A stretch of DNA of 64,000 nucleotides, from NCBI GenBank assembly GCA_052034405.1, contig JBPOIO010000023.1, positions 15,340 to 79,339 of the forward strand, in the 5' to 3' direction. This document shows positions 1,262 through 47,009 of this stretch, in pieces (the stretch's first letter is position 1; the number at the start of each line of letters is the position of its first letter). Below the pieces are notes generated by a model. The model was not told the origin of the DNA and made no database searches. It saw only the letters and a program-made list of their open reading frames with translations. The position numbers and the translations under genes were made by a program. Origin of the DNA: Candidatus Magasanikiibacteriota bacterium. Lineage in GTDB: Bacteria > Patescibacteriota > Patescibacteriia > Magasanikbacterales > UBA922.

Positions 1262-4135
1262 ATGTCCGAAAAAAAGCTCAATAAAGCCCAAGAAGAGGCT
1301 GTCCGCTATACGGATGGGCCGCTTTTGATTGTGGCTGGAGCTGGGACTGGGAAAACCACCGTTATTACCGAAAAGATAGCCTATTTGATAGAAAAAGAAC
1401 TGGCACATCCTGGACAGATTGTAGCGCTTACCTTTACCGACAAGGCTGCTCTTGAAATGCAGGATCGTGTGGACGAACGCCTTGAGTTGCCCTATAGCGA
1501 TATCCATATTTCCACTTTTCATACTTTTTGTCAGCGTTTACTCGAGCAGTATGCCCTTGAAATTGGTATTCCAAATAAATTCAAACTGATTACTGAGACT
1601 GATGCATGGCTTCTTATACGGGAGCATATCTATGAATTTGATCTCAAATATTTTCGTCCTCTTGGAAATCCCACACGCCATATACATGAATTTTTGAAGC
1701 ATTTTTCAAAATGTAAAGATGAAATTATTTCTCCCGAAGAATATATTCAGTATGTAAAATCTACATCCTTTGAAGATAGCGAAGAACAAGAACGTCTTGG
1801 TGAACTTGCTCATGCTTACCAAAAATATAACCAGCTCCTTCTTGAAAAAGGCTATTTGGATTTTGGCGATCTTATTTATTACTGTGTCAAACTGTTTCGT
1901 GAACGTCCAAATATTTTGAAACGTATTCAAAATCACTACAAATATATTTTGGTCGATGAGTTTCAGGATGTGAATTATGCGCAGTATCTTTTAACACAAT
2001 TACTTTCACAAAGTGCACAGCTTACAGTCGTGGGAGATGATGATCAAAGTATATACGCCTTTCGCGGAGCCTCTGTTTCAAATATTTTGAAGTTTCAAGA
2101 AGATTTTGGCAATGCAAAAAATATTGTCCTCAACGAAAATTATCGTTCGGATCAAAAAATATTGGATGCTGCCTATACATCGATTCAAAACAACAATCCT
2201 GATCGACTGGAAGTAAAATTACATATTGATAAAAAACTCAAGGCCGGAGTAAATTATCCAAAAGCGGCGGTTGTCCATTTGCATTCTCCTACACTTGCTG
2301 CAGAAGTAAAAAGTGTTGTTGAAGAAATTATACGTCTCAAAAATGAAAGTCTCTCTACGAGTTGGGACGATTTTGCAATTCTTGCACGTGCCAATAGTCA
2401 TGTAGAACCATTTATCCAGGGCCTTGAAAAAGCGGGGATTCCCTACGAATTTCTTTCGTCGATTGGACTCTTTCACCAACCCCTTGTGATGGATGCTATC
2501 AACTATTTCAAAATTTTGGATAATTATTTTGATTCTTCGGCATTGTATCGATTGCTGCGTATTGCATGTCTTGCTCTCTCAGAAGAGGATATGCAAAAAA
2601 TTACTTTCAATGCCCAAAAAAAATCTCTTTCTTATTATGAAGTCCTTTTGATCGCAGAAGAGCTCGAGCTTTCTGTAGAGGGTATTGAAAAATCAAAAAA
2701 GATTATTGAACTCATTCAAGAAGGTCTCATTGAATCTCGAAAAGAAAAACCTTCAATACTTTTGTATCACTTTCTTGAACGAAGTGGAGTACTCAAATAT
2801 TTGACAGACGAAGAGAGAAACGATAATCAATATATCATTCACCAGATTTATCAGCTTAATCAATTTTTTGAATTGCTCAAACAGTATGAAGAGAGCAATT
2901 CAGATGCGCATATACAAGGATTTTTGACGCAGTATAACTATACGATTGAATCGGGTGACGAAGGAAAAATGTACCAACCTGTTGACACTCCAGACTCGGT
3001 GAATATTTTGACTGTGCATGGATCTAAGGGGCTTGAGTTCAAGTATGTGTTTATTATCAACATGGTCGAAGAGCGTTTTCCTTCGCGTCGTCGAGGAGAA
3101 TCTCTTGAAGTTCCTGCCGCCCTCATCAAAGAAGGCCTTTCAGAAGGGGATTATCACTACCAAGAAGAACGTCGGCTTTTTTATGTTGCCATGACGCGTG
3201 CCAAAGAACGCTTGTATTTTACGAGCGCGAGTAGTTATGGTGGTGTACGAGAAAAAAAACTCAGTCGATTTTTGGATGAGCTCGGATATACAGCAATAAA
3301 AGGAGAAAAAATTCAGGCTTCAACAGAAATTATTGCCAGTCAAACGACTCCTCGACAGAGTATGAGCTATCAAATACCAGCATCATTTTCTTTTTCGCAG
3401 ATAAAATCCTATCAAACTTGTCCCTATCAATACAAACTCGCGCATATCATAAAAATTCCTACAAAAAGTAATGCCCATTTTAGTTTTGGAACCAGTATTC
3501 ACAGCACTTTCCAAAAATTTTATGAACAGGTGCAAGCGCTCAATACGCCAGCAACAAACTCAGTGATTGTTCCAAGTCTGGAGGAGCTTCTCGAAATCTA
3601 CAAAGCAAGTTTTATTTCCGATTGGTATAAAGATGCTGTGCAAAAAGAAAGTTACTTCAAAAAAGGACAGGAAATTTTGAAACTGTTTTATACTTCACAG
3701 GAAAATAATTGGCGCGTACCAGTAGCCCTTGAAAGTGCTTTCAAAATAAAAGTGGGGGACTATACACTGCGTGGACGCATTGATCGTATTGATCAGCTCC
3801 CAGATGGTACACTTGAAATTATTGATTACAAGACAGGAGAGAGTAAAGACAAGCTCACTGCCGAAGACAAAGAACAGCTTTTGATTTACCAAATAGCAGC
3901 CGAGACCAATCCGCAGTATCGTCATTTGGGTCGTGTTGAAAAGCTGACATTTTTTTATGTAAATGATACTATACAGATGTCTTTTGTGGGTAAAGAAAAA
4001 GAATTGGAAAAATTGAGTGAAAAACTCCACGAAACGATCAGGGCAATTCACTCAGGGGATTTTACTGCAAGTCCCTCTCCATTTATTTGCGCACATTGTG
4101 ATTTCAAAGATATTTGTGAATTTCGAAGCCTTTAG
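1262..4135 (+). CDS. UvrD/PcrA-family superfamily 1 helicase fused to C-terminal PD-(D/E)xK (RecB/AddB-like) nuclease domain with Cys cluster
   Basis: Walker A AGAGTGKTTV. UvrD motifs (VDEFQD, TVHGSKGLEF, YVAMTRAKERLY). C-terminal RIDRIDQLPDGTLEIIDYKTGE nuclease core. Terminal FICAHCDFKDICEF cysteines. Confidence 0.8.
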   Translation: MSEKKLNKAQEEAVRYTDGPLLIVAGAGTGKTTVITEKIAYLIEKELAHPGQIVALTFTDKAALEMQDRVDERLELPYSDIHISTFHTFCQRLLEQYALEIGIPNKFKLITETDAWLLIREHIYEFDLKYFRPLGNPTRHIHEFLKHFSKCKDEIISPEEYIQYVKSTSFEDSEEQERLGELAHAYQKYNQLLLEKGYLDFGDLIYYCVKLFRERPNILKRIQNHYKYILVDEFQDVNYAQYLLTQLLSQSAQLTVVGDDDQSIYAFRGASVSNILKFQEDFGNAKNIVLNENYRSDQKILDAAYTSIQNNNPDRLEVKLHIDKKLKAGVNYPKAAVVHLHSPTLAAEVKSVVEEIIRLKNESLSTSWDDFAILARANSHVEPFIQGLEKAGIPYEFLSSIGLFHQPLVMDAINYFKILDNYFDSSALYRLLRIACLALSEEDMQKITFNAQKKSLSYYEVLLIAEELELSVEGIEKSKKIIELIQEGLIESRKEKPSILLYHFLERSGVLKYLTDEERNDNQYIIHQIYQLNQFFELLKQYEESNSDAHIQGFLTQYNYTIESGDEGKMYQPVDTPDSVNILTVHGSKGLEFKYVFIINMVEERFPSRRRGESLEVPAALIKEGLSEGDYHYQEERRLFYVAMTRAKERLYFTSASSYGGVREKKLSRFLDELGYTAIKGEKIQASTEIIASQTTPRQSMSYQIPASFSFSQIKSYQTCPYQYKLAHIIKIPTKSNAHFSFGTSIHSTFQKFYEQVQALNTPATNSVIVPSLEELLEIYKASFISDWYKDAVQKESYFKKGQEILKLFYTSQENNWRVPVALESAFKIKVGDYTLRGRIDRIDQLPDGTLEIIDYKTGESKDKLTAEDKEQLLIYQIAAETNPQYRHLGRVEKLTFFYVNDTIQMSFVGKEKELEKLSEKLHETIRAIHSGDFTASPSPFICAHCDFKDICEFRSL

Positions 4136-4137
4136 CT

Positions 4138-4437
4138 ATGTCAATGACCCTTCTCGGTGACGCTCTCAAAAAACGAATGGGTATGGATAGACCTTTGCAA
4201 GCGCAGGCCGAGGCTGGTCTTTTGATTTCCCTTGCAGGAAGCATTCTCAATGATTTTGTGGGACCAGATAATAGCAAATATATAAAACCACTTTTTATCA
4301 AAAACCGTACGCTTACGATTACCTGTGCTTCTTCGGCACTTTCCCAAGAAATTCACCTCAATCAAGCAAAAATAATCAATCAAATCAATGAAAAGTTTGG
4401 TCAAAATGCCCTCGACCGTATTCGCTATTTGCTCTAG
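4138..4437 (+). CDS. DUF721-like (DciA-like) small protein
   Basis: 99 aa. Pattern LLGDALKKR...SILNDFVGPDNSKYIKPLFIKNRTLTITCASSALSQEIHLNQAKIINQINEKFG resembles the DUF721 family. Confidence 0.45.
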   Translation: MSMTLLGDALKKRMGMDRPLQAQAEAGLLISLAGSILNDFVGPDNSKYIKPLFIKNRTLTITCASSALSQEIHLNQAKIINQINEKFGQNALDRIRYLL

Positions 4438-4919: not shown

Positions 4920-6170
4920 ATGAAACAATCAAAATTATTTACCAAAACTCAAAAAGATATTAGTAAAGATGAAACAAGTGTCAATGCTCAATTTTTGCTT
5001 CGTGGTGGATTTGTGGATCGTCTGACTGCAGGTGTGTATAGTTATTTGCCTCTGGGACTTCGAGTTCTTCAAAAAATTGAAAACATTATTCGAGAAGAAA
5101 TGAATGCTGTTGGTGGACAAGAAATTTTGATGCCAGCACTTCATCCTCGTGAAAATTGGGATACTACTGGACGTTGGGATGTGGTAGATGTTTTGTTTAA
5201 ACTTATTGGTGCTGGTGAAAAAGAATATGCACTTGGAGCAACACATGAAGAAGTGGTGACACCTCTTTTGCAAAAAAGTATAACTTCCTATAAAGATTTG
5301 CCAACTTCCGTGTATCAAATTCAAACAAAATTTCGCAATGAAGCTCGTGCAAAATCTGGAATTCTTCGTGGACGAGAATTTCGTATGAAAGATTTGTATT
5401 CTTTTCATACAAACCAAGCAGATCTCGATCGATATTACGAAGAAGTTCATGCTGCGTACAATAAAATTTACGAACGTTGTGGACTTGGGGATACAACATA
5501 CTATACCTATGCATCTGGTGGAGCATTCTCAAAATTTTCTCATGAATTTCAAACTATTACTTCTGCAGGAGAAGATATTATTTATGTCTGTGATGCTTGT
5601 AGAGTTGCCTTGAATAAAGAAATTATTGAAGAAATTGGACTTCAATGTCCTGAATGTAAAAATACAGAGCTAAGAGAAGAAAAAGCAATTGAAGTTGGAA
5701 ATATTTTCAAACTTGGTACAAAATTTAGTGATGCCTTTCAATTTTCTTTTCAAGATGAACAAAATAACTTGTCTCCAGTGATTATGGGCTGCTACGGTAT
5801 TGGACCATCTCGTGTGATGGGAACTATTGTTGAGGTACATCATGACGACAATGGTATTATTTGGCCAAAGGCGATTGCGCCATACCAAGTACATTTGATA
5901 TCACTCTGTCGTGATGAAGCGGATATGCAAAAAGCAGAAGCATTATACCAAAGACTTTTGGAACAAAATATTGAAGTACTTTACGATGACCGTGACGGAG
6001 TTCGCGCTGGAGAAAAATTTGCAGATTCAGATTTGCTTGGAATCCCAGTGCGTCTTGTTATAAGTCCAAAAACAATTGAAAAAAATTCAGTCGAAGTAAA
6101 AATGCGAGCTGGTGCAGAGGCAAGTCTCGTTTCTCTTGATGAACTCGAAACATTTATACAATCAATCTAA
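4920..6170 (+). CDS. proS: Prolyl-tRNA synthetase, short form lacking INS editing domain, with zinc-ribbon insert
   Basis: Class II aaRS motifs (FRNEARAKSGILRGREFRMKDLYSFH). C-terminal anticodon-binding domain. CxxC...CxxC insert (YVCDACRVALNKEIIEEIGLQCPECK). Confidence 0.85.
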   Translation: MKQSKLFTKTQKDISKDETSVNAQFLLRGGFVDRLTAGVYSYLPLGLRVLQKIENIIREEMNAVGGQEILMPALHPRENWDTTGRWDVVDVLFKLIGAGEKEYALGATHEEVVTPLLQKSITSYKDLPTSVYQIQTKFRNEARAKSGILRGREFRMKDLYSFHTNQADLDRYYEEVHAAYNKIYERCGLGDTTYYTYASGGAFSKFSHEFQTITSAGEDIIYVCDACRVALNKEIIEEIGLQCPECKNTELREEKAIEVGNIFKLGTKFSDAFQFSFQDEQNNLSPVIMGCYGIGPSRVMGTIVEVHHDDNGIIWPKAIAPYQVHLISLCRDEADMQKAEALYQRLLEQNIEVLYDDRDGVRAGEKFADSDLLGIPVRLVISPKTIEKNSVEVKMRAGAEASLVSLDELETFIQSI

Positions 6171-6176
6171 TATCCT

Positions 6177-7223
6177 ATGTGGTTTTTAAAAAAAATGGGC
6201 AAAGATATTGGGGTTGATCTTGGTACTGCTTCAACTCGTGTGTATGTTGGGGAACGTGGTATTGTTATTCACGAACCAACGGTTGTTGCGGTGAACAATA
6301 AAACAAACCAAATTCTTTCTGTTGGTGCCGAAGCCAAACAAATGCTTGGGAAAATTCCACCGCATATTACAGTGACACGACCACTCAGTCACGGTATTAT
6401 TTCCGATTATGAAGCAGCAGAAAAACTCCTGAAATTTTTTCTTGATAAAATGCAAGAAGAAGGTGGGGCACTGCTCAATCGTCCACGAATTATTATCGGA
6501 GTACCGCTTGCGGTAACAGAGGTTGAAATCAAGGCCGTAGAAGATGCTGCTATTGCGGCAGGTGCACGGGATGTGTTTATTGTCCAAGAACCAATGGCAG
6601 CAGCTATTGGTGCTCGTATGCCTATTCAAGATGCCCTTGGAAACATGATTGTCGATATTGGTGCTGGAAAAACAGAAGTAGCTGTCATATCACTCCAGGG
6701 TGTGGTAGCATGGAAATCTACAAAAATTGCAGGAGATGAAATTAATAGAAATATTATCCAATACGCCCGAGATGTATTCAATCTTTTTGTCGGAGAAAGT
6801 CACGCAGAACAAATTAAAATAAAAATTGGATCAGCTGTAGAACTGCCAGAAACTTTGCAATTTGCAATGCGTGGACGAGATGTAATGTCAGGACTTCCAA
6901 AAGAATTGATGATTAGTGATGCACATATTCGTGAAGCCATCGAACGATCTTTGCGTGTTATTGTAGACACGATCAAAATGACACTTGAAATGACCCCGCC
7001 AGAGCTTACGGCAGATATTCACGAACGTGGAATTTTGCTTACTGGTGGAGGATCTCTCTTGCATGGAATTGACAAGCTTATTGCAGAAGCCACAGGTATT
7101 CCTGTACGTATTGCTGATGATCCAATTACTTCTGTAGTTCGTGGTACTGGAATTTTGCTTGATGATGCAGTACTTCTCAAAGAAATTGCATTACCATCGG
7201 CACGAGACATCCGTAAGTTATAG
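6177..7223 (+). CDS. mreB: Rod shape-determining protein MreB (actin homolog)
   Basis: DIGVDLGTASTRVYV phosphate-1 motif. MIVDIGAGKTEVAVISL. LTGGGSLLHGIDKLIAEATG. Confidence 0.9.
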   Translation: MWFLKKMGKDIGVDLGTASTRVYVGERGIVIHEPTVVAVNNKTNQILSVGAEAKQMLGKIPPHITVTRPLSHGIISDYEAAEKLLKFFLDKMQEEGGALLNRPRIIIGVPLAVTEVEIKAVEDAAIAAGARDVFIVQEPMAAAIGARMPIQDALGNMIVDIGAGKTEVAVISLQGVVAWKSTKIAGDEINRNIIQYARDVFNLFVGESHAEQIKIKIGSAVELPETLQFAMRGRDVMSGLPKELMISDAHIREAIERSLRVIVDTIKMTLEMTPPELTADIHERGILLTGGGSLLHGIDKLIAEATGIPVRIADDPITSVVRGTGILLDDAVLLKEIALPSARDIRKL

Positions 7224-34865: not shown

Positions 34866-35660
34866 ATGAACAACAAAACTCTCTCACAACCCGCACTCGA
34901 TATTATCAAAAATTATTCTCAGCTTGTCTTTGGCGACAAAAAAATAAACTGCCCCTACTTCAACAACCGCCGCAGCAAAGTTCGCGCAGGGTTGCGGGTA
35001 ATGATTGGAAAAGGCAACCCAGAAGAAATTATTGACGAAGCAAATCTTTTTGCACTCCGAGAAAAAATTGATCTCAAAAATTTATCAAGCGAGGCAATAA
35101 AACAATTTCTCGTTGATCACAATCTTGGACTTGATTGTTCTGCCTTTGCCTATTATATTTTGGCAGCAGAATACGCAAGCAAGACAAAAAATAAACTTTC
35201 TTCCAAGATATTTTATCCAAATATTGGACTTTTGCGAAAACTTCTCACCAAACTTCGCCCTGTAGAAAATATTGGGGTCAAAACTTTGGCACAGGAAAAA
35301 AACTCACATCTTGTTTCGCTCTCTGACACTGCTCCGGGAGACTTTGTAAGTATTTTAAATTCAGGAAAAGAACACAACCTCAATCATATCCTCGTCATTT
35401 ACAAAGTTGAATACGAAGAAAACCAGCCAAAAACATTGTACTATGTACATTCTTTTCAATGGTCCACAGATGGAAAATATAATCATGGAATAAAAACAGG
35501 GCGCATTGAAATTACTGATACGAAAAAAACACTGCTCGAGCAAAAATGGATTGAATCCGAAAAAACAGCTGAACAAAATGAAACTTACCTCCGAGCAAGT
35601 GATGCCGAAGTACTCGAACTCAAACGACTGAATGTATTATTAACAAAAAATCCTGCTTGA
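34866..35660 (+). CDS. Hypothetical protein (265 aa)
   Basis: ORF track 34857 (TTG) with first ATG at 34866. Followed by a terminator. Confidence 0.5.
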   Translation: MNNKTLSQPALDIIKNYSQLVFGDKKINCPYFNNRRSKVRAGLRVMIGKGNPEEIIDEANLFALREKIDLKNLSSEAIKQFLVDHNLGLDCSAFAYYILAAEYASKTKNKLSSKIFYPNIGLLRKLLTKLRPVENIGVKTLAQEKNSHLVSLSDTAPGDFVSILNSGKEHNLNHILVIYKVEYEENQPKTLYYVHSFQWSTDGKYNHGIKTGRIEITDTKKTLLEQKWIESEKTAEQNETYLRASDAEVLELKRLNVLLTKNPA

Positions 35661-35680
35661 GTGCAGGTTTTTTTATTTTT
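35645..35680 (+). terminator. Intrinsic terminator
   Basis: CCTGC (35652-35656) pairs with GCAGG (35663-35667). Then TTTTTTT (35668-35674). Overlaps the stop codon. Confidence 0.55.
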
Positions 35681-35777
35681 CTTCTAAATACCTCCGAGGA
35701 GATTTTCAAAAGGAAGGTCCGCGCGAAGTGCACGGAAGGATGGCGGCCCAATATCCGCCAGAATAGGGTTGTTTCGC

Positions 35778-36197
35778 CTAGAGCTTGCGCAGCTCGGCGA
35801 GGACGACCCACATATTCGAGACGTAGAGGTAGTAGCGCTGGAACAGATCGCTCGTGGCGGTCGGGATTCGTTCAAAATCCCCAGTCGCCAGATCTGCGGG
35901 CTCATTGCTGTAGCCCATTTCACGGAGGCAGCGCATCACCTCGGCAATGACCGACTGAATCCGCTGGTACTTCACGCCCATCGGATCAGCGTTCTTCACC
36001 CAGTTGAGCAGCAGCCCACGGATGGCCGAGAGGTGTTCCGCCTCCGAGTCATCACGATCCGCGCCAAAAACCTCTCGCAGTCGAAGTCCGTACATGACGG
36101 AAAAACTCCTGGCCCCGTCTGGGACAGGGCGAACTTGGTGTGGCTTTTGGCCACCATGGCCGCCAGCCTTTGTCGTTCCAGGACAATGGGGCACCAA
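35778..36197 (-). CDS. Hypothetical protein on a high-GC island (probable horizontally acquired gene)
   Basis: Region 35700-36230 is ~60% GC. Minus-frame codon third positions are strongly GC-biased (over 70%), whereas the antisense plus ORF 35769..36326 is not. Possible internal start at MYGLRL... Confidence 0.45.
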   Translation of the reverse strand: MVPHCPGTTKAGGHGGQKPHQVRPVPDGARSFSVMYGLRLREVFGADRDDSEAEHLSAIRGLLLNWVKNADPMGVKYQRIQSVIAEVMRCLREMGYSNEPADLATGDFERIPTATSDLFQRYYLYVSNMWVVLAELRKL

Positions 36198-36334
36198 TTA
36201 AACGAACGAGCACCAAATAAGGAGTTTATTATATTTTTAAAATTTATATGTGGACGAATGGAACGACCCACAAATCTACCACAATTCCTCTCCCTTGTCA
36301 ATCCCCACATTCTCTGCTATACTTGAAGAAAAAT

Positions 36335-42844: not shown

Positions 42845-43539
42845 AGATGTGCGATAGTAATAATATTTTCTCCATTCGCTTTATCCGAGCGATTTTCTTT
42901 TTTTGTATAATACTGTTCGTCCACTACAAATCCAGCACCTGTAAACAAAGAATCCAGCTCTTCCAGAGTAAATCCATGATAATAGCGCTCACCCAAAATA
43001 GAACCTTCTGCATCTCTCCATGGCACCAAAAAATCTCCATTTCCAAGGTCCTGATATTTTCCGAGTCGTACTTGCTTCAATCCCCATTCTCCAAACAAAT
43101 TCCAATTGGATAAAATTACTTTTCCATCAGGCTTCAAAACTCGTTTCATTTCTTCGAGGGCTTTATTTTGAAAATCCAGTCCAGGAATATGCTGCAGTGC
43201 AGCGATACAAAAAATCACATCCACACTTTTATCTTCCAAAGGAATGGCCGTCATAGTTCCTTGTATAAAAGTCCCCTCACGAAACTGTTTTCGGGCCAAA
43301 ACCAATAATTCTTCACTTTGGTCTACCCCAATATAGGATATTGGCAAATCCGTAAATATCTGGTATAATCGTCCATTACCACAGCCAAGGTCAAGTACCA
43401 CGTCATTTTCTTTGACAAAAGCATGAAAAGGCTTGAGCTCTTGCCACACATACTGACGAGTATCGGAAAAGTGTTTGGCTATGGTATTATATACCTGTAA
43501 ATTTTGTTCAATAAGTTGGCCCGCAACAAGTTTATCCAT
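42841..43539 (-). CDS. Class I SAM-dependent methyltransferase
   Basis: VLDLGCGNGR motif I. Start at 43539 or 43575 (ORF track). Confidence 0.7.
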   Translation of the reverse strand: MDKLVAGQLIEQNLQVYNTIAKHFSDTRQYVWQELKPFHAFVKENDVVLDLGCGNGRLYQIFTDLPISYIGVDQSEELLVLARKQFREGTFIQGTMTAIPLEDKSVDVIFCIAALQHIPGLDFQNKALEEMKRVLKPDGKVILSNWNLFGEWGLKQVRLGKYQDLGNGDFLVPWRDAEGSILGERYYHGFTLEELDSLFTGAGFVVDEQYYTKKENRSDKANGENIITIAHL

Positions 43540-45216
43540 ATGGATACAGTTCAGATAGAAGAAATGATGATACAAATTTTAGAAAAAAAGCCCTCTACAA
43601 AAGACGAGCTCAATTTTTGGCGGACAAAAATGGCAAGTGAATTCAAGACCAACCAGCCACCCACTCGCCTTCTTCTCGTAGCATATCAGAATTTACTCAA
43701 AAAGAAAAGAATCAAACGCCACAAAGATTTTGAAAAGCTCCTCACCAAAGCAGATATTCGCAGTAGCTCGGGAATTTCTGTTATTACGACACTTCTGAAA
43801 CCCTATACCTGCCCAGGAAAATGCATCTATTGTCCAACAGAAGTCCGTATGCCAAAAAGTTATTTGGCAAGCGAACCAGCAGCCGCACGATCTCTGGCCC
43901 TCAACTTCAACCCCTACAAGCTCATGCAATTGCGTATAGAGATGCTCGAGCGCAATGGCCATTCTACAGACAAAATTGAATATATCACCAAAGGTGGAAC
44001 CTGGAATGCCTATCCACTCAAATACCAATACTGGTTTATTTTGGAATCCTTCAAAGCCTGCAATAATTTTTCTCGCCGAAAACAAATTCCAGAAAGCGAA
44101 GAATCTGACTGGAATGATCGACCACTTGAAGAACTCCAAAAAGCACTCGACATTGAAATCAAATACAATGAAAAATGCGCGCATCGTATTATTGGACTTA
44201 CCCTCGAAACACGACCAGACGCCATCTCGCCAAAAACTATTTACCACATGCGCCGCCAAGGTTGCACCCGTGTAGAACTTGGTCTGCAAGCACCTGACGA
44301 TAAAATTCTCGAACTCATCAAACGTGGTCATACAGTAGAGCAATTTCGCAAAGCGATTTATTTGCTTCGCCAGGCTGGATTCAAAGTCGACCTTCACTTT
44401 ATGCCAGATCTCCCAGGAACTACCCCAGAGCACGATGTAGAAATGTACAAACTGCTTTTTAGCGACCTAGGCCTTCGACCTGACATGGTCAAAATTTATC
44501 CAAATGCAGTCATCCCCTCTGCCGAACTCTACCAATGGTTTCTTGATGGACGCTTCAAACCATATGGCGAAGAAGCACTCTTCAAATCCCTTCTCGAAAT
44601 GAAACTTGCGACTCCTCGCTACTGCCGCATATCACGCCTCATTCGCGACATTCCAGCAAACGAAATTGAAGGTGGAAACAAAATCACCAACCTGCGTGAA
44701 ATGCTCGAGACAGAACTCAAAAAACGCGGGCGACACTGCGTCTGTTTGCGTTGCCGTGAAATCTCTCGCCAAAAAGACAATATTCCTCTTGAAACAGAAC
44801 CCACACTTTTTGCGGATGAGTATGATACTATTGGTGGAAAAGAATATTTCATTACACTCGAAGACCCAAAACGCGTAGCCGTATTTGGATTTTTGCGTCT
44901 TCGTATCCCCGACCAAGCAAACAAAATTGATACGATTCAAAAACAGTTTGATAGCTATCTCCCAGAACTCAAAGACTGCGCATTTGTCCGCGAACTTCAC
45001 GTTTACGGAACATTGGTTGGAATCGGCAAACGAAATGTTGATGCCAGTCAGCATAAAGGATATGGAAAAAGACTTATGGCAGCAGCAGAAAAGATTGCCG
45101 CAGAAAATGGATACGGCAAAGTCGCTGTTATTTCTGGAGTTGGCGTGCGTGGATATTACCGCAAACTTGGCTACAAACTTCGAGGTACTTATATGATAAA
45201 AAACCTCTTTATATAG
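43540..45216 (+). CDS. elp3: Elp3-family radical-SAM plus GNAT protein (tRNA uridine-34 modification enzyme homolog)
   Basis: Radical SAM CPGKCIYC (Cx3Cx2C). Central Elp3-like region. C-terminal GNAT (GYGKRLMAAAEKIAAENGYGKVAVISGVGVRGYY). Start at 43540 or 43504. Confidence 0.8.
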   Translation: MDTVQIEEMMIQILEKKPSTKDELNFWRTKMASEFKTNQPPTRLLLVAYQNLLKKKRIKRHKDFEKLLTKADIRSSSGISVITTLLKPYTCPGKCIYCPTEVRMPKSYLASEPAAARSLALNFNPYKLMQLRIEMLERNGHSTDKIEYITKGGTWNAYPLKYQYWFILESFKACNNFSRRKQIPESEESDWNDRPLEELQKALDIEIKYNEKCAHRIIGLTLETRPDAISPKTIYHMRRQGCTRVELGLQAPDDKILELIKRGHTVEQFRKAIYLLRQAGFKVDLHFMPDLPGTTPEHDVEMYKLLFSDLGLRPDMVKIYPNAVIPSAELYQWFLDGRFKPYGEEALFKSLLEMKLATPRYCRISRLIRDIPANEIEGGNKITNLREMLETELKKRGRHCVCLRCREISRQKDNIPLETEPTLFADEYDTIGGKEYFITLEDPKRVAVFGFLRLRIPDQANKIDTIQKQFDSYLPELKDCAFVRELHVYGTLVGIGKRNVDASQHKGYGKRLMAAAEKIAAENGYGKVAVISGVGVRGYYRKLGYKLRGTYMIKNLFI

Positions 45217-45236: not shown

Positions 45237-45265
45237 TTGACAAAACGAGCAAAATCATGTATACT
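45237..45265 (+). promoter_or_regulatory. Consensus sigma70 promoter TTGACA-17-TATACT
   Basis: TTGACA 45237-45242, 17-nt spacer, TATACT 45260-45265. Drives the GC-rich unit downstream. Confidence 0.5.
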
Positions 45266-45335
45266 GCAAGGTCCTTGTTTGGATGTTCTTTGCAAGGGTG
45301 GCACTATTTTCTTTTTATAAAGTGAAAAAAAGAGA

Positions 45336-45584
45336 ATGTTGCCACCCTTGACCACTGACCCAACTGAGGAGAATGTCGTGATTTTTCGCGTGAATTTGGA
45401 AGAGGCACGCCGTATGCGTGCAATGCTGGAGTGGTGGGATAAAAACCACCACAAGATGCACATCATCAAGCCGATCATCACAAACCACAACAACAACCAA
45501 GGGACGCTCGACGTCGAGCTCCCGATCTCGCCCGACGATTCGTGCGACCTCCTCCCCTCGGCCAGCGGCGAATTCCGCCTCTGA
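45336..45584 (+). CDS. Small GC-rich ORF (82 aa), possible horizontally acquired gene fragment or coding part of an sRNA-like unit
   Basis: GC3 about 80% in the 3' half (ATC ATC AAG CCG ATC ATC ... GAC GTC GAG CTC CCG). Start codon enclosed by 11-bp hairpin CAAGGGTGGCA (45291-45301) with TGCCACCCTTG (45339-45349). Tandem terminators downstream. Confidence 0.35.
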   Translation: MLPPLTTDPTEENVVIFRVNLEEARRMRAMLEWWDKNHHKMHIIKPIITNHNNNQGTLDVELPISPDDSCDLLPSASGEFRL

Positions 45585-45616
45585 GCAAAACACGGCGCCA
45601 CGCGCCCACGACAGCC

Positions 45617-45685
45617 CCCGTCCGCCCTCACTTCGAGGCGCGGACGGGACAAGAAAAAAGCAGCTTTTTCAAAGGCTGTTTTTTG
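45617..45685 (+). terminator. Tandem intrinsic terminators
   Basis: 13-bp GC stem CCCGTCCGCCCTC (45617-45629) with GAGGCGCGGACGGG (45635-45648). Then CAGC (45661-45664) with GCTG (45675-45678) plus TTTTTT. Confidence 0.55.
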
Positions 45686-45743
45686 TTGCCTTAGCTATAG
45701 AAAAATGATACACTTAGTGCGATAATTTTGATCTAAGTTTTTA

Positions 45744-47009
45744 TTGTTATTAATGAATTTTATGAATACTCAAAAAATCGCCCAGTTTGATCCCGAGCTC
45801 CAAGCCGCTATCACCCACGAATTGCAGCGTCAAGAATCTGGTCTTGAAATGATCCCATCGGAAAATTTTGTTTCTCTTCCCGTTCTCGAAGCACTTGGGA
45901 GTGTCCTCACCAACAAATATTCCGAAGGCTACATTGGCAAACGCTATTATGGTGGATGTGAATTTATTGATGTTGCAGAAGGCCTTGCTATTGACCGTGC
46001 CAAACGACTTTTTGGAGCAGAACATGTCAATGTACAACCACTCTCTGGTGCACCAGCCAATGTAGCCGTATATTTTGCCCTCCTTGAGCCAGGCGATACA
46101 ATTTTGGGAATGGATCTCTCTCATGGCGGACACCTCACCCACGGGCATCCTGTGACCTATATGGCCAAGGTATTCAACTTTATTCGATACAAAACAAACG
46201 CTGAGGGAAACATTGACCTCGACAATCTCCGTGCCATGGCACTTGAACACAAACCAAAAATGATTTTGGTTGGATATAGCGCCTATTCTCGTGAAATTGA
46301 TTATGCTGCAGTCAAAGCCATTGCCGATGAAGTTGGAGCTCTCACCATGGCAGATATTGCTCATATTGCAGGACTTATCGCTGGAGGCGAAATGAACAAT
46401 CCAGTGCCACTTTTTGATGTCGTCACCACAACCACCCACAAAACACTTCGTGGACCTCGTGGTGGTATGATCATGTGTAAAGAAAAACATGCCAAAGCAA
46501 TCGATAAAGCAGTTTTCCCAGGACTCCAAGGTGGCCCACACGAAAACAACATTGCAGCAAAAGCAATTGCCTTCAAAGAAGCACTCGAACCAGAATTCAA
46601 AACATATGCACGCCAAATTCGCCTCAATGCCAAGACACTCGAGCGTAAATTTCGTGAATACGACTACAAACTGATGTTTGGTGGCACTGACAATCACCTC
46701 CTGCTCATCGATGTCACTCCAAAAGGCATTACAGGAAAAGAAGCACAACATGCACTTGACCTTGCGGGTATTACCGTCAACAAAAATATGATTCCAGACG
46801 ATCCACGCTCCCCAATGGACCCAAGTGGTATTCGTCTTGGTACTCCAGCGCTCACCACTCGTGGCATGAAAGAATCTGAAATGGAAATAGTTGCGGATCT
46901 TATCAATCGCGTTATTATGAGTTTCAAAGACGAGAAAGTACTTGCAGAGGTTCGCGAAGAAGTACGCAGTCTCGCTGCAAAATTTCCTCTCTATCCTGAA
47001 CTTCACTAA
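45744..47009 (+). CDS. glyA: Serine hydroxymethyltransferase
   Basis: [26 protein letters not shown] (PLP-lysine). Confidence 0.9.

Follow-up and report, generated by a model that had tools for sequence, protein, structure and literature searches.

Bacterial mRNAs in which the Shine-Dalgarno (SD) sequence is occluded by a complementary strand in cis include the ROSE and fourU thermometers and the leaders that are activated by RNase III, among them the N leader of phage lambda. Among type I toxin mRNAs, the nascent mRNA is silenced by intramolecular structure and is then activated ribonucleolytically (PMC11228461, PMC7708055, PMC5416894). Here we describe a unit with related architecture at positions 45237-45687 of a 64,000-nucleotide stretch of DNA (the window, or W) from a Candidatus Magasanikiibacteriota bacterium (assembly GCA_052034405.1, contig JBPOIO010000023.1), a low-GC genome (~38% GC). 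Like hok/sok, tisB/istR-1, and aapA1/IsoA1, the unit combines a small open reading frame (ORF) with a strong promoter, a 5′ end predicted to fold onto the ribosome-binding region, and stabilizing terminal structures, and the ribosome-binding site is paired intramolecularly, with covariation, in the predicted folds of four sequences. It differs from them in its product, which is neither a small hydrophobic peptide of the membrane nor related in sequence to a known family of toxins, and no antisense RNA gene or promoter was detected. By analogy, the unit may work as type I toxin mRNAs do, and we do not call it a member of that class. We consider it fairly probable that it is an independent transcription unit encoding a lineage-restricted, fast-evolving, soluble protein of 68 residues that is translationally gated. 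Sequence comparisons indicate that it is most likely restricted to a narrow group of Magasanikbacteria and place it in none of the known families of RNA or protein.

The unit is situated between an Elp3-like radical-SAM/GNAT gene (43540-45216), whose nearest matches are in Candidatus Magasanikbacteria of the candidate phyla radiation (CPR), and glyA, and the GC content rises from ~36% at 45250 to 72% at 45550-45650 and falls to 29% beyond. The gap of 527 bp upstream of glyA that was reported in a preliminary description is correct to the first possible TTG start, and becomes 545 bp if measured to the ATG at 45762, the equivalent of which is the glyA start in the relatives. Related loci (L001 onward) were collected by Elp3 scans of genomes and metagenomes, which gave one close relative (L001) and ~100 distant ones, and by an Elp3 protein search followed by exact-protein look-ups; the relatives in the metagenome scan were all at most 70% identical, with no leader homologues among them. 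Elp3 identity to W is 92% for L001 and L100, 87% for L102, 86% for L101, 84% for L103-L106, 79% for L107, 72% for L111, and 71% for L112. The L100 sequence comes from ERZ27254754, that of L102 from GCA_964884485.1, and those of L101 and L108 from SRR32548945. Promoter, leader, GC-rich ORF, GC hairpin, and terminator are common to W, L001, L100, and L102 (the W clade). L107 and L111 have the terminator and the general layout in common with W, with different leaders and ORFs, and L103-L106 lack the small gene and have GGDEF-like and NUDIX genes in its place.

The unit opens with a sigma-70-type promoter (Table 1) that had been reported as perfect and rare in the window. The TTGACA-17-TATACT sequence is indeed present, but it matches the consensus at 11 of 12 positions, and seven sites of at least this quality lie on the two strands of the window compared with 3.5 ± 2.3 in shuffled sequences; such a promoter is uncommon in the window, though not unique. 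Conservation in the relatives is stronger evidence than rarity, with TTGACA-17-TATACT in L001, L100, and L102, and TGGACA-17-TATAGT in L107. We infer from the sequence that transcription starts at ~45272.

The ~100-nt 5′ leader is predicted to fold as a rod with a free energy of −46 kcal/mol (z = −6.8), and the same rod is predicted for L001, L100, and L102 (z = −6.6, −5.0, and −5.3, respectively). Its apical helix comprises 11 bp (45293-45303/45340-45350) stacked with 12 bp (45305-45316/45327-45338), and an anti-SD sequence lies in its basal stem, opposite the SD. An RNAalifold consensus of the four sequences contains 35 pairs, 10 of which have compensatory changes on both sides; these include pairs in the anti-SD/SD stem and in the apical helix. 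In the former, the pairing is UCCUUG/UGAGGA in W, CCUCCU/GAGAGG in L100, and CCUUUU/GAAAAGG in L102. A covariance model of the leader (R1) searched against 760 kb identified copies in W, L001, L100, and L102 only, with a single copy in the window. The 11-bp hairpin proposed previously (45291-45301/45339-45349) is real, but was placed ~2 nt off and is part of a larger structure with 12 more bp and a basal stem. The ATG at 45336 does lie inside this hairpin, as had been noted, but the start is not conserved here: L001 has CTG at this position, the codon is out of frame in L102, and no SD precedes it. Rather than sequestration of a start codon, the predicted folds point to masking of the SD of the downstream GTG (45378) by the 5′ anti-SD.

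In the mechanism we propose, the near-consensus promoter would drive an mRNA of ~415 nt, in which UCCUUG at the 5′ end would pair with the SD to form the base of a 100-nt rod capped by the 23-bp helix. The SD would be captured once transcribed, such that the nascent mRNA would be translationally silent, with its 5′ end base-paired and protected, and the GC-rich, hairpin-studded body together with the GC hairpin and the strong terminator would give the mRNA a long life. For translation, the leader would have to be opened or cleaved, and the likeliest route to activation would be a double-strand-specific cut of the RNase III type in the 23-bp helix, after which only the short basal stems would hold the anti-SD; alternatively, a helicase or some other factor could act in trans. 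As in other SD-masking riboregulators, the SD would be occluded in cis, and the long perfect helix predicted here could be an RNase III substrate. Unlike the ROSE and fourU thermometers, the leader, with its predicted −46 kcal/mol and 23-bp helix, is far too stable to melt at physiological temperatures, and a search of Rfam gave no match to ROSE, fourU, or any other leader family.

The evidence that the ORF is coding comes from several sources. First, a GTG start preceded by an SD is conserved in W, L001, L100, and L102. Second, the codon usage is strongly periodic, with GC contents of 0.55, 0.35, and 0.78 at codon positions 1, 2, and 3 (GC1, GC2, and GC3); the GC3-rich character described earlier holds, with GC3 increasing from 0.71 in the first half to 0.86 in the second, but the frame is of 68 codons from GTG 45378 and not of 82. 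Neighboring genes have a GC3 of 0.30-0.40, and 0.30-0.42 is normal for the genomes. Read in the frame set by the SD, each of the five ORFs at the orthologous position has a GC3 above its GC1 and a GC1 above its GC2 (combined z = 8.8), with per-gene P values from <0.0002 (W) to 0.03. Third, the product of W is homologous to that of L102 along 50 residues (BLASTP, 7e-12), with the common pattern V-[IF]-F-R-x3-E-E-x-R-x2-R-x4-W-W-D-x2-H-x2-M-H, and identities at codon positions 1, 2, and 3 are 0.46, 0.68, and 0.40; that position 2 is the most conserved is the pattern expected of translated sequence. W and L100 also have in common a C-terminal motif, TLDVELP..DS.DL (z = 5), and the periodicity, the W/L102 homology, and this motif are independent of one another. 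Of the three possibilities raised in the preliminary description, a regulated small protein is the one we favor, from the conserved promoter, SD, and GTG, the periodicity in five lineages, and the W/L102 protein homology.

Other interpretations of the coding region fared less well. A minus-strand ORF of 147 residues has third positions that coincide with those of the plus frame, a GC1 lower than its GC2, and neither an SD nor a promoter, and we regard it as an artefact of the high GC content. Homology of the L001 and L100 ORFs to W through a frameshift was rejected, as was derivation of the ORF from the 3′ end of the neighboring GGDEF-like gene. We note that the W coding body (45381-45584) is full of short GC palindromes (CACGCCGUAUGCGUG, GGUGGG..CCACC, and GCUCGACGUCGAGC), and that the L001 coding body (3931-4158) contains a 14-bp hairpin, GGUCGCACUGGCGCGC..GCGCCAUGCGACC, as well as CUCGAGGUGA..UCACCUCGAG; palindrome positions are not conserved between the relatives.

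The W-clade proteins are 62-86 residues long, acidic or basic, and largely disordered, with grand average of hydropathy (GRAVY) values of −0.4 to −1.0, and none has a transmembrane (TM) segment, the maximum Kyte-Doolittle score in a 19-residue window being ≤0.39 in all of them. A single-sequence AF2 model of the W product has a strand at residues 2-6, a helix at residues 7-23, and a disordered acidic tail (pLDDT 58), and the 68-residue product is predicted to be soluble, with an N-terminal strand-helix module and a disordered tail. Tryptic peptides of the product include AMLEWWDK and MHIIKPIITNHNNNQGTLDVELPISPDDSCDLLPSASGEFR. Searches of Pfam, PHROGs, PADLOC, NCBIfam, and PDB profiles gave no match, and the database search for homologues of the peptide that had been suggested earlier was likewise negative, using both the 82- and 68-residue products in a word-indexed search of 5.8 billion proteins. 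The sole HMMER match among 1.84 billion representatives was a Calx-beta repeat artefact.

These properties bear on whether the unit could be a type I toxin-antitoxin-like toxin mRNA, in which folding of the mRNA, together with an antisense RNA that has gone unseen, would block translation. The gene has the patchy distribution of an accessory one, and its strong promoter, SD-masking 5′ untranslated region (UTR), small ORF, and stable 3′ end resemble those of hok, tisB, and aapA1 (PMC11228461, PMC7708055, PMC5416894). We nonetheless regard this explanation as very unlikely: the size, charge, disorder, and lack of hydrophobicity of the W-clade proteins all speak against it, as does the absence of any PADLOC or NCBIfam match. 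No promoter-like site was found on the minus strand in a consensus scan of 45237-45700, which a weak promoter could escape, and a bidirectional terminator would shield the unit against antisense transcription from downstream.

The predicted fold is also reminiscent of ribbon-helix-helix proteins (RHH; CopG/Arc/MetJ), with a short N-terminal strand, a helix that opens with acidic residues (VIFRVNLEEARR...), and a disordered tail. Unlike in RHH proteins, however, a second helix is not predicted, and a partner toxin gene is absent; RHH models of Pfam and NCBIfam gave no match even at E = 1, nor did a PDB profile search.

The components of the unit evolve in different ways. Identities of L001, L100, and L102 to W are 0.83, 0.79, and 0.63 in the leader and 0.74, 0.75, and 0.66 in the 3′ UTR, both better conserved than the four-fold degenerate sites of Elp3 (0.61, 0.56, and 0.45), and are 0.58, 0.63, and 0.58 in the ORF body, which barely exceed the values for shuffled ORF controls (0.53-0.55). 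Moreover, the W N-terminal module matches L102 and has no match in any frame in the closer relatives L001 and L100, and the W C-terminal motif matches L100, so that relationships among the ORFs conflict with those of the flanking genes. This suggests that divergent alleles, of which only five are known, may have been exchanged through conserved flanks. Polymorphic loci at which alleles are swapped between conserved flanks include pherotype and immunity-type loci. The similarity lies in conserved regulatory flanks around a coding body that is at odds with the flanking phylogeny; the locus described here differs in having no signal or leader peptide, processing motif, or partner genes, and in that only five alleles are sampled. 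Because the sequence turns over at least at silent-site speed, with apparent allele exchange, an accessory or conflict-related factor fits better than a housekeeping role for the 68-residue protein.

A more elaborate proposal is that the unit is a polymorphic small-protein cassette, in which the promoter, leader, and terminator are conserved around a body exchanged between lineages (trans-specific alleles), and in which the GC3-rich usage and GC hairpins are actively maintained, through either mRNA selection or biased gene conversion. The product would then be a conflict or host-interaction factor of an episymbiont, and the locus would be part of a wider, hitherto undescribed class of GC-rich ORFans at fixed hotspots in Magasanikbacteria. 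We view this as conceivable, though doubtful. A multicopy palindromic mobile element was also considered, and was rejected when all-against-all BLAST of 96 GC-rich segments returned orthologous same-locus groups only.

Several observations weigh against our preferred reading of a translationally gated protein. The slot and terminator are common to only five sequences, and the leader to only four. The SD of L107 is masked by a different, local hairpin, and that of L111 is unmasked, and gating by this leader would therefore be specific to the W clade. The involvement of RNase III is pure inference, and the AF2 model is of low confidence, too uncertain for a fold search. Constraint is weak over most of the protein, with the ORF diverging at about the neutral-site rate, and conservation is higher in the UTR structures than in the ORF, leaving room for a function at the RNA level. 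Finally, GC-rich DNA is stop-free in nearly every frame, and the open frame alone therefore proves nothing.

The last of these points would suit a structured noncoding RNA (a small RNA, sRNA) with an ORF that is an accident of GC-rich sequence, one of the earlier suggestions. GC-rich islands are an established principle for finding noncoding RNAs in AT-rich hyperthermophiles, and the sharp GC peak (up to 72%) and strong predicted folding seen here are reminiscent of them. The full transcript folds with z = −8.8 relative to shuffled sequences, the ORF segments of W and L001 fold unusually well (z = −2.7 to −5.9), and the GC content of the 3′ UTR (64-74%) matches that of the ORF. Unlike such islands, however, this one has codon periodicity in a translated-looking frame, and no RNA family match. 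The SD-frame periodicity in five lineages, the conserved SD and GTG, and the W/L102 homology at the protein level make an sRNA unlikely, even though the UTR structures outlast the ORF. Also against it, the ORF body is unalignable between close relatives and hence carries no conserved RNA structure. The comparison with Rfam proposed in the preliminary description returned no housekeeping RNA that would explain the structure: at the gathering threshold there were no matches to any family, 6S, SRP, tmRNA, RNase P, riboswitches, and leaders included, in the whole window or in 17 related loci, and E-value mode gave only spurious microRNA hairpins (MIR3627 and similar; 30 bits versus a gathering score of 64). 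ARAGORN identified no tRNA or tmRNA. Phage DNA and viral-contig searches gave nothing meaningful for the unit, a plasmid search gave a single 35-nt terminator-like match and nothing else, and a literature search for GC-rich small genes in the CPR found nothing relevant.

The near-neutral divergence of the ORF could alternatively indicate a decaying remnant from a high-GC donor without present function, the third of the possibilities raised before. A GC3 of 0.78 in the company of host genes at 0.30-0.40 is atypical, the gene is missing from L103-L106, and there are other GC3-rich ORFans without detectable domains in related genomes. We find this quite unlikely. The promoter, leader, and terminator are clearly constrained, synteny of the gene extends over five lineages, and a GC3 of 0.66-0.86 is maintained in all five in spite of substitution at 39-55% of the Elp3 four-fold sites and only 40% identity of W/L102 third positions. 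A neutral remnant should drift toward host composition and lose its periodicity, and the persistent GC3 at homologous third positions that are saturated therefore argues against a remnant and is not accounted for by a simple recent transfer that is ameliorating to the host. No donor-like homologue was found among the 5.8 billion or 1.84 billion proteins searched.

The double 3′ hairpin reported previously is well supported, with a GC-rich hairpin of 13 pairs preceding a 13-bp stem that is followed by a T-run. The sequence of the former varies among L001, L102, and L107 with the structure maintained, and it is probably a 3′ stabilizer. The terminator is single-copy in the window and is conserved in L001, L100, L102, L107, and L111; with an A-run 5′ and a U-run 3′ of the stem, it could terminate transcription from either side. 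At the L104 and L112 loci, the terminator stands at the end of the GGDEF-like gene.

In W, L001, L100, and L107, the unit lies immediately 5′ of glyA in the same orientation, which raises the question as to whether it is a cis-regulatory leader of glyA, its own translation or termination setting read-through. This is highly improbable. The strong 13-bp terminator with its U6 run intervenes, glyA has a conserved extended −10-like motif of its own (TGATACACT), glyA or NUDIX is expressed without the unit in L103-L106, and L102 has another small gene in between. L001, L100, L104, L107, and L111 also have this motif ahead of glyA or NUDIX, and the true promoter of glyA is probably this one and not the GATAAT at 45721-45726 that the promoter scan reported.

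Table 1. Features of the 45237-45687 unit, its relatives, and other GC-rich genes (window coordinates unless a locus is named)
Feature	Position	Strand	Details
Sigma-70-type promoter	45237-45265	+	TTGACA 45237-45242, 17-nt spacer, TATACT 45260-45265; 11/12 match
5′ leader rod, ~100 nt	45272-45371	+	Predicted fold, covariation, conservation; sequence stretch GGATGTTCTTTGCAAGGGTGG
Basal stems of leader	45272-45287 paired with 45357-45370
Apical helix, 23 bp	45293-45316 with 45327-45350		1×1 mismatch; loop 45317-45326
Anti-SD UCCUUG	45272-45277	+	Predicted transcript 5′ end; pairs with UGAGGA 45365-45370
SD GAGGAG	45366-45371	+	6 nt 5′ of GTG; 5/6 bases paired in predicted leader
SD in relatives	4-6 nt before GTG		L001 GGAGGA; L100 GAGAGGAA; L102 AAAGGAA
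Small-protein gene	45378-45584	+	GTG start, 68 codons + TGA; product VIFRVNLEEARRMRAMLEWWDKNHHKMHIIKPIITNHNNNQGTLDVELPISPDDSCDLLPSASGEFRL
Small GC hairpin GGCGC-CAC-GCGCC	45594-45606	+	3′ UTR, predicted fold; L100 counterpart GGCGCCAAGCGCC
GC-rich pre-terminator hairpin	45617-45648	+	CCCGUCCGCCCUC...GAGGCGCGGACGGG; 13 pairs, one bulge, no U-tract
Pre-terminator hairpin in relatives			L001 CCCGUGCUCCU/AGGAGCACGGG; L102 CCCGCAUUG/CAAUGCGGG; L107 CCCCGAGCC/GGUUCGGGG
Intrinsic terminator	45655-45687	+	AAAAAAGCAGCUUUUUCAAAGGCUGUUUUUU(G); 13-bp stem; A-run before, U-run (U6) after
Extended −10-like motif TGATACACT	45706-45714	+	Read from sequence; outside unit, marks downstream boundary
Variable-slot genes in relatives	L100 2498-3733; L101 2124-3176; L103-L107 about 5178-6398; L111 5205-5612
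Second GC-rich gene	35778-36095	−	105-residue all-helical protein MYGLRLREVFGADRDD...LAELRKL; GC3 0.75
Loci with post-Elp3 GC-rich island			L003, L004, L005, L006, L007, L009, L011-L014, L021, L026, L049
Larger GC3-rich ORFs	L044 1307-1942 (= L088 307-942); L062 5136-6797; L060 4817-5344; L064 699-1244

The interval between Elp3 and glyA is a variable slot, which in the relatives contains a GGDEF-like gene (384-411 residues) and/or a NUDIX gene (135 residues). In W, L001, and L102, the small gene is in the slot without a GGDEF-like or NUDIX gene; in L102 a further gene, of 60 residues (5216-5398) and with a promoter and terminator to itself, separates the unit from glyA. On the other side of Elp3 (plus strand), its start codon abuts that of a divergent methyltransferase gene (minus strand; CAT|ATG, 43537-43542) with zero intergenic DNA, and each promoter must therefore sit inside the coding sequence of its partner; the relatives have the same abutting gene calls.

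There is a second GC-rich island in the window (35690-36200; 57-60% GC), between a terminator at ~35652-35675 and mraY. Its gene has a TTGACA-17-TAGATT promoter-like site upstream on the minus strand, and five homologues of 70-100% identity, the relatives being syntenic beside mraY and 70-79% identical at the protein level; the product had no match in Pfam, in the PDB, or by fold. Third positions are 45% identical, yet GC3 is 0.61-0.75 across the homologues, and in maintaining GC3 this gene appears to behave like the ORF of the unit.

In many of the more distant Magasanikbacteria, a small ORF within a GC-rich island (59-69% GC) is located 0-400 nt after Elp3, on either strand (Table 1). In several of these, SDs, promoters of the TTGACx type, and a GC hairpin beyond the stop codon were read by eye, and the sequences are of several unrelated families; the L003 and L004 products have in common a TM helix and a His/Arg-rich tail with PLGIGFG...RDQxHLR. 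GC3 periodicity is clear in L005, L026, L013, and L012 and is absent in L004, L006, L009, and L011, and some of these ORFs may therefore be noncoding. Larger GC3-rich ORFs (GC3 0.70-0.88) are present in Magasanikbacteria contigs of 37-43% GC, with no Pfam domain save a sub-threshold NUDIX match in L044. From these comparisons, GC-rich ORFans seem to recur in Magasanikbacteria.

Members of the CPR have small genomes with many genes of no assigned function, and post-transcriptional control in them is almost undescribed. The locus provides a concrete and testable case, in which a leader with covariation-supported SD masking would drive an orphan small protein. The general kind, an SD-masking leader before a small ORF, is already known, and the unusual part is the persistent GC3-rich usage together with the allele incongruence. 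If the simple reading holds, this is one more lineage-specific hypothetical small protein; if the pattern is general, it would bear on how orphan and accessory genes originate and are maintained in episymbionts.

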